Below are positions 5,925-10,174 of a DNA stretch of 11,859 bases, in pieces. The stretch comes from a virus. Position numbers and translations under genes: made by a program. The notes beneath the pieces are model-generated. The model searched no databases and was not told where the DNA came from. It saw only the letters and a program-made list of their open reading frames with translations. The DNA is taken from UHGV virus genome UHGV-1565572; one strand, 5' to 3'. Position 1 is the first letter of the stretch. Each line of letters begins with the position of its first letter.

Positions 5925-7361
5925 TCAGAATCCTCCTTTCTTCTTGGACTGCGGTTCCTCGCGTTCACGGCGGCGCATTTCAGCAGACTGTTGGTCTGTG
6001 TCATAAATAGCGCCATTTGCCTGAATGCAATACACCGTGCCGGTATTGCCATGACGATTGAGACGAAGGATTAGTTCGGTTTCACCAGGCGGAACGCTGT
6101 CATCAAAAGCACCTTCACGATGGATCCCCACCCAATAATCGCAATCCTGTTCAATCTGCCCTGTATCGCGCGAGTCACTTGGTAATGGGCGTTTATTGGT
6201 TCGGCTTTCCAGTGCGCGGTTAAGCTGCGTCAGAAGCACAACAACGCAATCAAGCTCTTTGGCAAGGTTCTTCAGTCCTTTGGTGATCATGCCGTAAGCA
6301 AGGTCGTTACGATCGGCTTTCTCAGCGGTCATTAGTGTCAGGTAATCGACCAGAATCATCCCAACACATCCTTTTTCTCGCTTGATTCGACGGCTTTCGC
6401 TGACGATTTGAGCCAGAGATAATCCCGGCGTGTCGTCGATGTAAAGCAGGTCGATTTCACTCAAGCGATTGGCTGTTTCGATCGCCCTGTTGAAGTCACC
6501 ATCGTAATCACCCTGATAGCCGTCATCAGCGTCATTTGTCGCCGGAAGGTAAAAAATATTCGGGTTAACACCAGACTTCTGCCCTACCAGTTTTTCCAGT
6601 ATCTGATCACCTGGCATTTCAAGGCTGAACATCAGAGCGGGCTTTTTCTCATGCACTGCGCAGTTGATTGCCATCTGGCTGTATAGCGTCGTTTTCCCCA
6701 TCTTAGGGCGAGCGCCAATGACAAACAGAGAGCCTTTCACCAGGCCTTTCGGTGACAGCATCCTGTCCAGCGATGGGATCCCTGTGCTCATTCCTCGTTG
6801 TTCGCCTGACGGGTCAAATCGCTTCTCAAGGTCGCTAACCCAGTCTTCCATGACCTCACCAAATGAGCGAAGGCCGCGACGCGATCCGGTTTTTGCATGG
6901 TCTGTCAGTTGCGTGAAAATCGACTGAATAGCTTCGTACTTCTGCGTTGCAGTCATTCCGTTGCGGGAATAGAGCAATTCCGTCGCTTCAGTCATGCGGT
7001 TGATGGCGTAGCGTTCCATTGCGGTTTCGCAAACCTGCATTGCATAAGCAACGATGTTTGCTGCGCTTGGCGTGTTCTTTGCGATCTCAGCGATATAAGC
7101 AAAACCGCCAACAGACACCGTTAACGATTTACGCTCCAGTTCATCGAAAAGCGTCAGGCCATCTACTGGCTTTTGCTCACGGTGCATTCTGGTTATTTCT
7201 TCGAAAATGATTTTGTGTGGTCGGCTGTAAAATGAATCAGGCTTCAGCATCGCCAGGACTTTCTGGACGCGCTCACTGCTGTCATCATCCAGAAGCAATC
7301 CACCAATCACCGCCTGCTCTGCCTCGATGCTATGGGGCGGCGCATAAAAATTATCGGTCAT
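5925..7361 (-). CDS. Replicative DNA helicase, DnaB family (phage-encoded, P22 gene 12-like)
   Basis: 478 aa from the ATG at 7359-7361. Walker A GARPKMGKTT, a DnaB-like N-terminal domain (SIEAEQAVIGGLLLD) and a RecA-like C-terminal domain. Its start overlaps the 3' end of the O-like gene. Confidence 0.9.
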   Translation of the reverse strand: MTDNFYAPPHSIEAEQAVIGGLLLDDDSSERVQKVLAMLKPDSFYSRPHKIIFEEITRMHREQKPVDGLTLFDELERKSLTVSVGGFAYIAEIAKNTPSAANIVAYAMQVCETAMERYAINRMTEATELLYSRNGMTATQKYEAIQSIFTQLTDHAKTGSRRGLRSFGEVMEDWVSDLEKRFDPSGEQRGMSTGIPSLDRMLSPKGLVKGSLFVIGARPKMGKTTLYSQMAINCAVHEKKPALMFSLEMPGDQILEKLVGQKSGVNPNIFYLPATNDADDGYQGDYDGDFNRAIETANRLSEIDLLYIDDTPGLSLAQIVSESRRIKREKGCVGMILVDYLTLMTAEKADRNDLAYGMITKGLKNLAKELDCVVVLLTQLNRALESRTNKRPLPSDSRDTGQIEQDCDYWVGIHREGAFDDSVPPGETELILRLNRHGNTGTVYCIQANGAIYDTDQQSAEMRRREREEPQSKKKGGF

Positions 7362-8241
7362 CGTGTTCACCCTCACGAACTTTCAGGTAGGTATTATCGT
7401 TAAGCAGGAAATCAAATCCCTTTTTGTGCCAGACGGTTCCGCGTTGATGGTTTGGACGCTCTTCGAACATCCATCGGCAATTTTCGCCTACGTAGCTCAA
7501 ATAATTTCTCCAGTCCTGCATCGTGAACCCATGCCCGTCAAGCTGGCGGGTTATCACTCCGGCTTTGCGCCAGAACGTTCGGATCTGGTTTTTACGCTTG
7601 TCATTCAGTGCGCGGATTTTTGGCGCTTCAGGAAGGATTTCGTGGTAAGCATCGACAACATCCTGACAGCTAACGGAAGGTTTTTTCTTGTCAGACTTTT
7701 TGTCTGCTGTGGCACTCTCTAATACGTCAGTATTAGAGATATTATTTATATTATTGTTTATGGACAACCGTTGGACAGCCGTTGGACAATCTCCGCTGAG
7801 AGCCGCGCCATTACTGGTGTTTGCGTTGGACAACCGTTGGACAACCGTTGGACAATTTTTTGCCTGAAAATCGTCATATTTAACGATTGTAAACAGGCTA
7901 AATTTCTTCCCCATCGAGCAAATATTAAGCATCCCTTTCGACTCAAAAGTCCGTAATAAGCTCCGAACTTTGTTGTCGGGGATGAATGTTTCTCTGACCA
8001 GAGACGGGCGTCCAGTTATCATCTGACCGCGATCAACAGTTATCGGACCGATATCCGTATTGACGACAGTAGATTCGTGATTAGCCTTGAGGATTAAGTG
8101 AAGCCAAAGATGTACTGCCTGAGAGTCCTTATAGAGCCTGCTGTCCATAAACTGGCGGTGTATAGAGACATACCCCATACTGGATGCCTCCTGATGTTGT
8201 ACAGGGTTATGCCTGTAATCAGCTAACTTAACGACGCCCAT
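7351..8241 (-). CDS. Replication initiator protein (lambda O / P22 gp18-like) containing the origin repeats
   Basis: 296 aa from the ATG at 8239-8241 with an AGGAG RBS; an alternative ATG at 8176-8178 also has an RBS. The ori repeats encode a repetitive linker (CPTVVQRLSN...CPTAVQRLS) followed by an Asn/Ile-rich stretch. It sits directly upstream of the helicase. Confidence 0.8.
   Translation of the reverse strand: MGVVKLADYRHNPVQHQEASSMGYVSIHRQFMDSRLYKDSQAVHLWLHLILKANHESTVVNTDIGPITVDRGQMITGRPSLVRETFIPDNKVRSLLRTFESKGMLNICSMGKKFSLFTIVKYDDFQAKNCPTVVQRLSNANTSNGAALSGDCPTAVQRLSINNNINNISNTDVLESATADKKSDKKKPSVSCQDVVDAYHEILPEAPKIRALNDKRKNQIRTFWRKAGVITRQLDGHGFTMQDWRNYLSYVGENCRWMFEERPNHQRGTVWHKKGFDFLLNDNTYLKVREGEHDDR
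7715..7860. repeat. Origin of replication: iteron clusters plus an AT-rich region inside the initiator gene
   Basis: Six copies of CGTTGGACA, as two clusters of three tandem ~11-bp units (7762-7790 and 7824-7856). An AT-rich stretch (7720-7757) lies next to them, with a 9-bp palindrome CTCTAATAC-N4-GTATTAGAG at 7717-7738. Confidence 0.75.
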
Positions 8242-8389
8242 GTTTCACTCCTGCTTTGGCTAGTCTGTAAACACCAACAAGGCGTTCTGCGAACGCCCTG
8301 TTATTTGCTGCGGCTACCACTAATCCCTCAGGTGAATCAGGGTGTCGAATCTCTTCTTTTTCCTGGTATTTCTTACGACGTTTTGTCAT
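8228..8389 (-). CDS. Hypothetical small basic protein (53 aa) between cII and the initiator gene
   Basis: ATG at 8387-8389 with AGGAG six nt upstream: MTKRRKKYQEKEEIRHPDSPEGLVVAAANNRAFAERLVGVYRLAKAGVKHGRR. It overlaps the initiator start by 14 nt if that gene starts at 8241. It is below the ORF-track cutoff. Confidence 0.35.
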   Translation of the reverse strand: MTKRRKKYQEKEEIRHPDSPEGLVVAAANNRAFAERLVGVYRLAKAGVKHGRR

Positions 8390-8391
8390 AA

Positions 8392-8467
8392 TTACTCCTG
8401 TGGATTGATCCAGTCTTTCTACATCAGGCCTCGAAGAATTCGCCGTTCTTCGGGGCTTTTTCTTTTG
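8392..8467 (+). ncRNA. oop: OOP-like antisense RNA, antisense to the 3' end of cII
   Basis: A plus-strand intrinsic terminator (10-bp stem 8429-8438 / 8446-8455, then CTTTTTCTTTTG) overlaps the cII 3' end. A CATAAT -10-like hexamer at 8387-8392 lies about 70 nt upstream. Partial similarity to recalled lambda oop (GATCCAGT). The 5' end is approximate. Confidence 0.45.
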
Positions 8468-8702
8468 TCAGCATTCTGGCTACTTTCTTAGCCAGTTCCG
8501 CCAACTCCTCGTCTTCAACACCCCATTCAAGAACAGCCAGAAGCATTCCCATTTTTGGGATGAAGCTGTCTTTCCATCGCGAAATTTGCGATTCATTAAT
8601 CCCTAACGCGTCGGCAACCTTTCGCTGGCCACGTACAGCAATTCGATTCAGGATGTTGCTTGTAATTGCATTCGCTTTCTTGCGAGTACTTGTAAGTTGC
8701 AT
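8424..8702 (-). CDS. cII: cII-like transcriptional activator
   Basis: 92 aa from the ATG at 8700-8702. The core ESQISRWKDSFIPKMGMLLAVLEWGV aligns to recalled lambda cII (KSQISRWKRDWIPKFSMLLAVLEWGV); the N- and C-termini diverge. The track ORF is an upstream extension. Confidence 0.8.
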   Translation of the reverse strand: MQLTSTRKKANAITSNILNRIAVRGQRKVADALGINESQISRWKDSFIPKMGMLLAVLEWGVEDEELAELAKKVARMLTKEKAPKNGEFFEA

Positions 8703-8781: not shown

Positions 8782-8813
8782 GCCCTTTTTCAGGGCTGGG
8801 ATGTGTAAGAGCG
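8782..8813 (-). promoter_or_regulatory. nutR (boxA + boxB N-utilisation site)
   Basis: On the minus strand CGCTCTTAC (boxA, 8805-8813) and GCCCTGAAAAAGGGC (boxB hairpin, 8782-8796), 9 nt after the cro stop. Matches recalled lambda nutR. Confidence 0.85.
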
Positions 8814-8821
8814 GGAATGTC

Positions 8822-10174
<1,353 letters not shown>

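Follow-up and report, generated by a model that had tools for sequence, protein, structure and literature searches.

The DNA analysed here (the window, 11,859 nucleotides of UHGV virus genome UHGV-1565572) is a lambdoid early-right region encoded on the minus strand. It showed approximately 99% identity to Sf6, mEpX2, Huey and HK542, and the gene order of these four phages matched that of the window. The features identified between the replicative helicase gene and cII are listed in Table 1. The cII gene ended with a TGA stop codon at 8426 bp–8424 bp on the minus strand. The distance from cII to the initiator gene, given as about 180 bp in an earlier reading made from the sequence alone (the sequence-only reading), measured 182 nt with the initiator starting at 8241 bp and 245 nt with the start at 8178 bp.

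Table 1. Features of the window between the helicase gene and cII
Feature	Position (bp)	Strand	Basis
DnaB-like replicative helicase gene, downstream of the initiator	5925–7376	-	ORF translation; HK629, HK75 and Stx2-1717 annotations; blastp classification
Replication initiator gene, 296 aa, Sf6 gp43 type, internal iteron origin	7351–8241	-	PHROG 345, E = 4.9e-85
Origin iterons CCGTTGGACAA in two clusters (11-bp register) within the initiator gene	7761–7867		Repeat search; Sf6 rep_origin annotation
Candidate internal initiator start, AGGAGG (8192–8187) and ATG (8178–8176)	8176–8192	-	Nucleotide invariance
Gene for a 53-aa basic protein, HK97 gp53/Sf6 gp42/ES18 gp58 family	8228–8389	-	PHROG 1331, E = 1.4e-37; dN/dS
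Conserved stem-loop in the rightward mRNA, within the gp53 ORF	8276–8302	-	22 distinct homologues
Predicted pO promoter	8363–8392	+	Homology to lambda pO, same TTTGTCATAAT; corresponding 'oop promoter' in the P22 record
Predicted OOP-like antisense RNA, about 66 nt	8400–8466	+	Fold; terminator scan; alignment to the 5′-end of lambda oop
cII-like transcriptional activator gene, 92 aa	8424–8702	-	Pfam Phage_CII, E = 1.8e-42; PHROG 191; Sf6 gene 41 annotation

For both features of the gap, the OOP antisense RNA and the HK97 gp53-type gene, descriptions from close relatives already exist. Hayes et al. (2012, PMC3349717) reported the arrangement cII-oop-'orf'-O-P in lambdoid phages, Sf6 and HK97 among them; the layout found here is therefore a correct re-discovery and, as such, adds little. 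The small ORF is missing from several public records, in which the stretch is covered only by an O or replication protein annotation.

The predicted OOP-like RNA and its promoter

The sequence-only reading had placed an intrinsic terminator on the opposite strand over the 3′-end of cII, and a terminator scan located it as a 14-pair GC-rich stem on the plus strand (8426 bp–8458 bp) followed by TTTTTCTTTTGT. The predicted RNA consisted of a 5′ stem-loop (8400 bp–8422 bp), this terminator stem-loop and a U-tract, its 5′-end being taken from the alignment with the 5′-end of lambda oop. Its complement comprised the final ~43 nt of cII and the cII-gp53 spacer; the RNA came to within 1 nt of the gp53 SD, covered the last ~14 codons of cII and, by position, reached cII codons up to 8466 bp. 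The size of about 70 nt and the 3′-end near 8462 bp that had been expected were close to our prediction of 8400 bp to ~8465 bp. The 69 nt between 8400 bp and 8468 bp folded at -27.2 kcal/mol (z = -5.1), and none of 200 shuffled sequences was as stable. A hairpin directly preceded the T-run in all 23 sequence variants, with GC, CG, AT and TA pairs alternating at stem positions as compensatory changes. This comparison used per-sequence folds anchored on the T-run, as the stems were misaligned by MAFFT with RNAalifold and the resulting consensus was poor.

The resemblance to lambda OOP extended beyond the layout that the sequence-only reading had pointed out to the sequence itself. The window sequence CTGGATCAATCCACAGGAGTAATTATGACAAA aligned with the 5′-end of lambda oop, the -10 box of pO and the start of O, and a conserved block of approximately 33 bp, CTGGATCAATCCACAGGAGTAATTATG, aligned with lambda CTGGATCTATCAACAGGAGTCATTATG. 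This oop/pO block of lambdoid phages has been described previously (PMC3349717), and a degenerate pattern of it matched at least 120 viral contigs. The P22 record carries an 'oop promoter' and an 'oop terminator' at the same place, and the HK629 record an 'oop RNA' adjoining its gp53 homologue. The P22 oop RNA was detected by RNA-seq and its first 30 nt are identical to 8403 bp–8432 bp of the window (PMC13397905); OOP-BTP1 was annotated from transcriptome data of the Salmonella prophage BTP1 (PMC7067206). An Rfam scan of the entire window returned nothing at E ≤ 1, and no Rfam family covers the OOP-like RNA. From these alignments the plus-strand element is a homologue of lambda and P22 oop, the RNA itself being predicted.

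The predicted pO promoter had an extended -10 element, with TG at 8384 bp–8385 bp and CATAAT at 8387 bp–8392 bp; this box is the reverse complement of the start codon region of the 53-aa ORF, its CAT being the complement of the gp53 ATG. The -35-like sequence CTGGTA (8363 bp–8368 bp) was weak (three of six matches, 18-nt spacer), and a simple generic promoter scan did not flag pO. Such a weak promoter, together with the lack of an Rfam match, would fit a reading in which pO is too weak to produce a discrete RNA and the hairpin is either mere structure at the 3′-end of cII or a terminator of stray leftward transcription. However, the -10 box and its TG extension were identical to those of lambda pO, and in P22, which shares the same -10 and 5′ region and differs only in the hairpin sequence, the RNA is made. 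Furthermore, a -10-like box abutted the start codon of the small ORF in 20 of 21 diverse loci, in which box and terminator co-occurred at a fixed spacing of 60–75 nt, and the distant loci carried better -35 boxes (TTGAAT, TTGAAA or TTGAGT). The sense strand had no T-run after the hairpin, so the hairpin is not a terminator for cII. We consider it highly unlikely that the hairpin is structure or a stray terminator alone, and prefer a pO-driven antisense RNA.

As in lambda, the predicted RNA is antisense, begins immediately upstream of the SD belonging to the gene that follows cII and ends within the 3′-end of cII at an intrinsic terminator with a U-tract. The -10 is identical to that of lambda pO (TGTCATAAT, at 8384 bp–8392 bp here) and there is homology between the 5′ sequences (GUGGAUUGAUCCAG versus GUUGAUAGAUCCAG). 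The RNA is, however, predicted to be ~11 nt shorter than lambda oop because this cII allele does not have the C-terminal extension of lambda cII, and its terminator has a different, longer stem (14 pairs compared to 8–10). Additionally, the -35 lies in the gp53 gene rather than in O and is weaker, and the gene start that overlaps pO is that of the 53-aa ORF and not that of the initiator. The pO promoter would fire leftward from ~8400 bp, yielding an RNA of ~66 nt that ends at the intrinsic terminator in the last cII codons, and its transcription would run head-on into that from pR; interference between pO and pR is known in lambda (PMC3985674). RNase III-dependent down-regulation of cII by oop is likewise known in lambda (Krinke and Wulff, as cited in PMC7067206 and PMC3349717) and, by analogy, we infer that the OOP-like RNA of this phage would act on cII in the same way.

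The 53 amino acid ORF

The basic 53-aa ORF claimed by the sequence-only reading was present, preceded by an SD (AGGAG, 8399 bp–8395 bp) five nucleotides before its ATG, and the protein, which is strongly basic and begins MTKRRKKYQEKEE, would be read from the pR transcript. Residues 1–53 matched positions 1–53 of the 53-position PHROG 1331 profile; this full-length match, like the hairpin and T-run in all 23 variants, far exceeds what chance would give. The protein was 100% identical to HK97 Gp53 and Sf6 gp42 and to those of HK446, mEp213 and many Stx phages, in which position and overlap are also the same. It is thus a member of the HK97 gp53/Sf6 gp42/ES18 gp58 family (annotated 'function unknown'), from which it showed no difference. 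The family was represented by 20 distinct Enterobacterales proteins (Escherichia, Salmonella, Cronobacter, Erwinia, Enterobacter, Serratia, Rahnella and Brenneria), with dN/dS values of 0.04–0.27 at a dS near saturation; conservation of the frame, which had been proposed as a check, was therefore found.

Part of this conservation could be explained by three nucleic acid signals that overlap the ORF, namely pO (codons 1–9), an mRNA hairpin (codons 30–38) and the SD and start of the initiator (codons 45–53). Lambda does not have the 53-aa ORF, P22 and CP-1639 have an unrelated 48-aa ORF in the same slot, and the protein showed no homology to any known domain. These points would suit an ORF that is not a functional protein, being a spacer left behind by mosaic recombination or a leader that delivers ribosomes to the initiator, with an irrelevant amino acid sequence. 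However, the gp53 core, defined as the ORF minus its promoter and overlap parts, was under purifying selection, with a dN/dS of 0–0.26 and synonymous sites near saturation. Third codon positions were the most variable (55 of 56 columns, compared to 37 for first and 30 for second positions), motifs free of overlapping signals such as HPDSPEGLVVAA were kept from Escherichia to Serratia and Brenneria, and all indels in the family were in frame. A spacer or leader of irrelevant sequence is very improbable given this pattern of substitution, which argues that the 53-aa ORF is a real, conserved protein-coding gene.

Searches for the function of the protein gave no match in Pfam or NCBIfam and only a chance match to PDB sequences (E = 1.4). 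A simple AF2 model of low confidence, built from a 34-sequence alignment (pLDDT 69), had disordered residues 1–20 followed by helices at residues 21–29 and 31–49, and a Foldseek search of this model against the PDB returned 0 matches. An exhaustive profile search of 1.84 billion representatives identified 24 relatives, all of 84 aa or less and with no fusions that hinted at function. The literature search for HK97 gp53 returned unrelated gp53 proteins only, and that for P22 orf48 returned mentions of the layout and no functional study. Homology of gp53 to P22 orf48 (MPKQLSPDQDKLHK...) or to the N-terminus of lambda O was considered and rejected, as no sequence similarity was seen.

A new side observation was a conserved hairpin in the mRNA within the gp53 ORF, with the core GGCGTTC-GCA-GAACGCC at 8297 bp–8281 bp. 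Across the 22 distinct homologues 92.4% of cells were paired, compared to 85.8 ± 1.5% in shuffled alignments (0 of 500 reached this value) and 32–50% when the structure was slid along the alignment. Two pairs covaried, and the G·U pairs fitted the sense strand only. A terminator-like match on the plus strand at 8281 bp–8297 bp was rejected as a leftward terminator because the G·U pairs, which are numerous, can form on the minus (mRNA) strand alone.

The start of the replication initiator

The 296-aa initiator matched PHROG 345, 'replication initiation O-like', and DnaD-like PHROGs, and no Pfam family, including Phage_rep_O, was found above threshold. Judged from these matches and from the iterons within its gene, the initiator works like O but belongs to a different family, the Sf6 gp43/HK022 type.

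The sequence-only reading had left the start codon between 8241 bp and 8178 bp. The longest initiator ORF begins with the ATG at 8241 bp, which has an SD (AGGAG, 8252 bp–8248 bp) and lies 14 nt before the gp53 stop; a -14 overlap was found in over 100 loci, nearly all of those examined. As the gp53 stop lies 14 nt past the initiator ATG, gp53 and the initiator are probably translationally coupled. Codons 1–10 (8241 bp–8212 bp) encode a conserved N-terminal peptide, MGVVKLADYR, and the same overlap together with the pattern M-[GSNA]-V-[VA]-[KR]-[LI]-[ASE]-D-Y-[RQ] preceded at least three types of initiator.

The ATG at 8178 bp has a strong AGGAGG 9 nt before it, and the DNA motif CAGGAGGCA...ATGGGG was unchanged across 7 distinct Sf6-type sequences, while the linker codons beside it had non-synonymous changes. 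The linker (8211 bp–8179 bp) evolved as a non-coding spacer would, and alignments of the initiator to PHROG 2514 and PHROG 186 began at residues 18–22. All of this would agree with an initiator that starts only at 8178 bp, the frame from 8241 bp being open by chance or its product unimportant. Against this, codons 6–10 after the ATG at 8241 bp, which lie beyond the gp53 stop, had a pS of 0.70 and a pN of 0.10, and in the HK97-type and ES18-type initiators the same decapeptide is the sole possible start. Close relatives of the initiator that are coupled to orf48 have a lysine in place of the methionine at the second site, with the frame open from the upstream ATG, and the length of the linker varies by 6 nt with the frame kept. 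A start at 8178 bp alone is consequently unlikely. Because the first ten codons are under purifying selection, we assign the start of the initiator to 8241 bp; the AGGAGG and ATG at 8178 bp may also serve, as a second start giving a shorter product.

Taken together, we are confident that the stretch between cII and the initiator forms a compact and conserved part of the early-right operon of lambdoid phages, in which oop on the plus strand overlaps the 53-aa gene on the minus strand, and that the initiator starts at 8241 bp.

P22 (NC_002371; PMC3349717) has the same organisation, with a cII-like gene, the oop terminator and promoter, a small ORF at the same ATG, an initiator that overlaps the stop of the small ORF and then a DnaB-type helicase. 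Its small ORF and initiator, however, overlap by 8 nt compared to 14 nt here, and its initiator begins MSNLATVT rather than MGVVKLADYR.

The N-terminus of the initiator, (M)GVVKLADYR, may be a degron like the ClpX N-motif-1. GVVKL lies at the extreme N-terminus of a phage initiator, as does the N-motif-1 of lambda O (TNTAKILNFGR), and with its variants SVVKL, NVAKL, SVARI and GVARL it resembles the N-motif-1 examples Dps STAKL, AtpD ATGKI and lambda O TNTAKI, which are listed in PMC9775585. By eye, GVVKL and its variants appeared compatible with the N-motif-1 pattern (polar/hydrophobic-hydrophobic-basic-hydrophobic), with some homologues having no basic residue (AVVSL). The initiators of P22 and CP-1639, which are coupled to orf48, differ from that of the window in having no such motif. 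If the N-terminus is a degron, the starts at 8241 bp and 8178 bp would yield an unstable and a stable initiator, respectively.

The small ORF and the phage-encoded helicase

In this data set a small ORF filled the slot only where the module encoded its own helicase. Among modules sharing the boundary sequence, a phage helicase was present in all 57 with a small ORF, and a loader of the lambda P or DnaC type in all 39 without one. This association could be plain linkage within a few mosaic modules, as it represents approximately nine combinations with the small ORF and two without.

We know of no loader for these phage helicases. As the slot is filled only in modules with their own helicase, we tentatively suggest, as one possibility, an accessory role for the 53-aa protein in such modules; the slot protein could, for example, assist in loading of the phage helicase, or act on the initiator by protecting or adapting it. 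The hairpin in the gp53 mRNA may tune the coupling between gp53 and the initiator. A joint reading, in which the slot holds an accessory factor (of the gp53 type, or of the unrelated orf48 type in P22) for modules with their own DnaB-type or primase-helicase, GVVKLADYR is a degron, two starts give an unstable and a stable initiator and the hairpin tunes coupling, is doubtful as a whole.

The link between the slot and the helicase is a concrete hypothesis that is open to deletion and complementation. The start of the initiator and its possible second isoform are relevant to the annotation and expression of such replication proteins, and the gp53 family, which is clearly under selection, occurs widely among Stx-converting and P22-like phages.

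The cII-initiator interval and its relatives

The elements that the sequence-only reading had placed between cII and the initiator gene were all recovered at the same positions, which confirmed the observation and supported its interpretation. The cII stop (8424) was 182 nt from the initiator ATG at 8241, in agreement with the roughly 180 bp proposed. A 53-aa ORF, beginning MTKRRKKYQEKEE, was preceded by AGGAG (8399-8395), five nucleotides ahead of its ATG. On the opposite strand the 3′ end of cII was overlapped by an intrinsic terminator, with a 14-pair plus-strand stem (8426-8458) followed by TTTTTCTTTTGT. As the layout cII-oop-orf-O-P has already been published, by Hayes et al. (PMC3349717), the finding is a correct re-discovery; oop is the lambda-type antisense RNA gene and pO its promoter. 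In 23 phages, Sf6, HK97, ES18 and CP-1639 among them, those authors described a conserved oop/pO block of 33 bp, and the Sf6 record names this boundary sequence bsq5.

Features of the early-right and immunity regions of UHGV-1565572
Feature	Coordinates	Strand	Remarks
434-type cI	9141-9773	+	immunity region
cro	about 9036-8822	-	
nutR-like boxA/boxB	boxA CGCTCTTA 8812-8805; boxB GCCCTGAAAAAGGGC 8796-8782	-	between cro and cII; lambda-like
cII	8702-8424	-	Pfam Phage_CII, E=1.8e-42
53-aa ORF	8389-8228	-	PHROG 1331
initiator, 296 aa	8241-7351	-	11-bp iterons inside
iterons, 11-bp	7761-7867		within initiator gene
DnaB-like helicase	7376-5925	-	

Between 8150 and 8720 the window showed 99.1-99.7% identity with phages Huey, mEpX2, HK542 and Sf6, in which the equivalent stretch is annotated as cII, a hypothetical protein and a replication protein. 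The Sf6 record also annotates nutR, tR1 and P_RE in the stretch equivalent to 8782-8812. The immunity region (8822-9773) is of the phage 434 type; its operators are noted as identical to 434 O_R in the Sf6 record, and the N-terminal sequences of cI and Cro match those of the 434 repressor and Cro. A 158-aa ORF (9698-10174), also on the plus strand, comes directly after cI and has a hydrophobic signal-like segment; it occupies the position of lambda rex and may be an accessory gene, either for a lipoprotein expressed in the prophage or of the exclusion type. The iterons were adjoined by an AT-rich inverted repeat of 10 pairs (7716-7739), TCTCTAATAC...GTATTAGAGA and then TATTATTTAT, which resembles the AT-rich portion of a lambda-type origin more than it does a terminator.

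The 53-aa ORF and its mRNA stem-loop

The whole of the small ORF matched PHROG 1331 (E=1.4e-37), and its product was 100% identical to HK97 Gp53, Sf6 gp42 and the product of the same ORF in many Stx-converting, HK- and P22-like phages. Database and genome searches returned 28 distinct DNA versions encoding 20 distinct proteins, from Escherichia, Salmonella, Cronobacter, Erwinia, Enterobacter, Citrobacter, Yokenella, Edwardsiella, Chimaeribacter, Serratia, Rahnella and Brenneria. The frame, whose conservation the earlier reading had proposed as a check, was under constraint: relative to the window sequence, dN/dS was 0.06-0.30 for the whole ORF and 0-0.26 for the core (without the parts overlapping promoter and initiator), where synonymous sites were near saturation, and 55 of 56 third codon positions in the alignment were variable. 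With these values, neither an ORF open by chance nor a mere spacer is tenable; sequence comparison makes the small ORF a genuine gene, in a family that is known but uncharacterised.

Public records describe this gp53 family as 'function unknown; similar to HK97 gene 53', and annotate it inconsistently; in those of IME10, 2851, YYZ-2008 and ENT47670 only the O/replication-protein gene is listed under the match. Searches of Pfam, NCBIfam and PDB gave no match to the protein. An AF2 model (pLDDT 69) predicted a disordered basic/acidic tail (residues 1-20) and two helices (21-29 and 31-49), and had no Foldseek match in the PDB. Among 1.84 billion representatives, searched exhaustively with a profile, only 24 matched, all ≤84 aa and none fused to another domain.

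A predicted mRNA stem-loop within the small ORF, AACAGGGCGTTC-GCA-GAACGCCTTGTT (8302-8276, minus strand; codons N-R-A-F-A-E-R-L-V), was also conserved. Among 22 distinct homologues 92.4% of cells could pair, compared to 85.8±1.5% for shuffles (0/500); sliding the partner gave 32-50%. Six of the nine pairs, however, are fixed by invariant F-A-E-R codons. Two pairs covaried: the first nucleotide of an Ala/Pro/Ser codon with the third of an Arg codon (GC 8, CG 7, GU 4, UG 2; the Pro-containing sequences are possibly one clade), and the third nucleotide of an Arg/Lys/Gln codon with the first of a Leu/Phe codon. The stem was rich in G·U pairs, which the opposite strand would have as A·C; the strand that folds is therefore the rightward mRNA. 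The plus-strand 'terminator-like' element called here by a terminator scan was rejected as a leftward terminator on the same grounds.

The oop gene and its predicted promoter

In an alignment with lambda, the homologue of CTGGATCAATCCACAGGAGTAATTATGACAAA was the block in which the oop 5′ end, the -10 box of pO and the beginning of O lie. This bears out the OOP-like arrangement noted in the sequence-only reading and identifies the plus-strand element, by homology, as the phage's own oop gene, with a predicted 5′ end at G8400. The pO -10 box, CATAAT (8387-8392) with a TG extension (8384-8385), was the same as in lambda, and its CAT complements the small-ORF ATG. The -35 region was weak (CTGGTA, 8363-8368, spacer 18 nt), which explains why a generic promoter scan did not flag pO; more distant family members carried TTGAAT, TTGAAA or TTGAGT plus TATAAT at the same position. 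A -10-like box adjoined the start codon in 20 of 21 diverse loci, with a GC hairpin and T-run 60-75 nt further on.

Folded as RNA, 8400-8468 formed two hairpins (-27.2 kcal/mol, z=-5.1), a value equalled by none of 200 shuffles. The terminator hairpin, always abutting a T-run, was present in all 23 sequence variants, and its stem positions switched among GC, CG, TA and AT pairs, indicating compensatory change across different cII alleles. The P22 reference record places an 'oop terminator' and 'oop promoter' at the equivalent spot, and the HK629 record notes 'similar to lambda oop RNA' immediately ahead of the gp53 homologue. P22 oop, identical to window 8403-8432 in its first 30 nt, has been seen by RNA-seq as a 63-nt RNA (PMC13397905), and OOP of Salmonella prophage BTP1 was annotated from transcriptome data (PMC7067206). 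By analogy, the window RNA is predicted to start at 8400 and end near 8465; at ~66 nt it would fall about 11 nt short of the 77-nt lambda oop, because the C-terminal extension of lambda cII is absent from this allele. As in lambda, it would pair antisense with the cII 3′ end and lead to RNase III cleavage (Krinke & Wulff, as cited in PMC7067206 and PMC3349717), and transcription from pO and pR would interfere (PMC3985674).

Initiator start and replication module type

The sequence-only reading had left the initiator start between ATG 8241 and ATG 8178. ATG 8241 overlapped the small-ORF stop by 14 nt, as in nearly all of more than 100 loci (17 nt in two). The first ten residues (MGVVKLADYR, 8241-8212, minus strand) followed the pattern M-[GSNA]-V-[VA]-[KR]-[LI]-[ASE]-D-Y-[RQ] ahead of initiator bodies of at least three unrelated types, namely Sf6, HK97/P22-gp18 and the lambda-O type of ES18, the latter two of which had no alternative start. 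Codons 6-10, beyond the small-ORF stop, gave pS 0.70 vs pN 0.10, which argues that the N-terminal peptide is translated and selected. Close relatives of the window initiator behind orf48, a P22-type small ORF in the same slot without similarity to the 53-aa protein, read ...GGKGFALIHRQFMDS..., with Lys at the position of the window's second Met. Together, the overlap, decapeptide, pS/pN and Lys-for-Met evidence shows that ATG 8241 is a real start.

ATG 8178 lay within CAGGAGGCA-N9-ATGGGG (8192-8176, minus strand), an AGGAGG-N9-ATG motif in the initiator frame. Every nucleotide of it was invariant among seven distinct Sf6-type sequences, and the linker ahead of it varied by non-synonymous substitutions and a 6-nt indel. 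Since this pattern fits a conserved internal ribosome-binding site, a second, shorter product from ATG 8178 is tentatively suggested, though somewhat doubtful. The window N-terminus, GVVKL after Met removal (variants SVVKL, NVAKL, SVARI and GVARL), also resembled ClpX N-motif-1 degrons, of which lambda O TNTAKILNFGR is the model (PMC12723719) and Dps STAKL and AtpD ATGKI are further examples (PMC9775585). By this likeness it is a possible degron, in which case the product from 8241 and that from 8178 would not be equally stable.

Matches to other phages broke at ~8380, right past small-ORF codon 3, and at ~8211, past initiator codon 10, so the small ORF travels as a unit with initiator codons 1-10. 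The orf48 type behaved alike, with MSNLATVT or MSNISNLAEAR recurring ahead of different initiator bodies. Modules were then classified in 120 viral contigs carrying the boundary sequence (loci L111-L230). A small ORF was present in 57 classifiable modules (37 gp53 type, 20 orf48 type), every one of which encoded a phage helicase, DnaB-like or an ES18-type primase-helicase, and all 57 classified phage-helicase modules had a small ORF. Where the initiator started directly at the boundary, all 39 classifiable modules encoded a loader, lambda-P (35) or DnaC-type (4), and none had a small ORF. The same association was found in the annotated phages Stx2-1717, HK629 and HK75, and diverse genomic small-ORF loci agreed, the next gene having a DnaB-like N-terminus. 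It could be plain linkage within a few module types (about nine combinations against two), but is still the only functional lead for the gp53 and orf48 small proteins of helicase-encoding replication modules.
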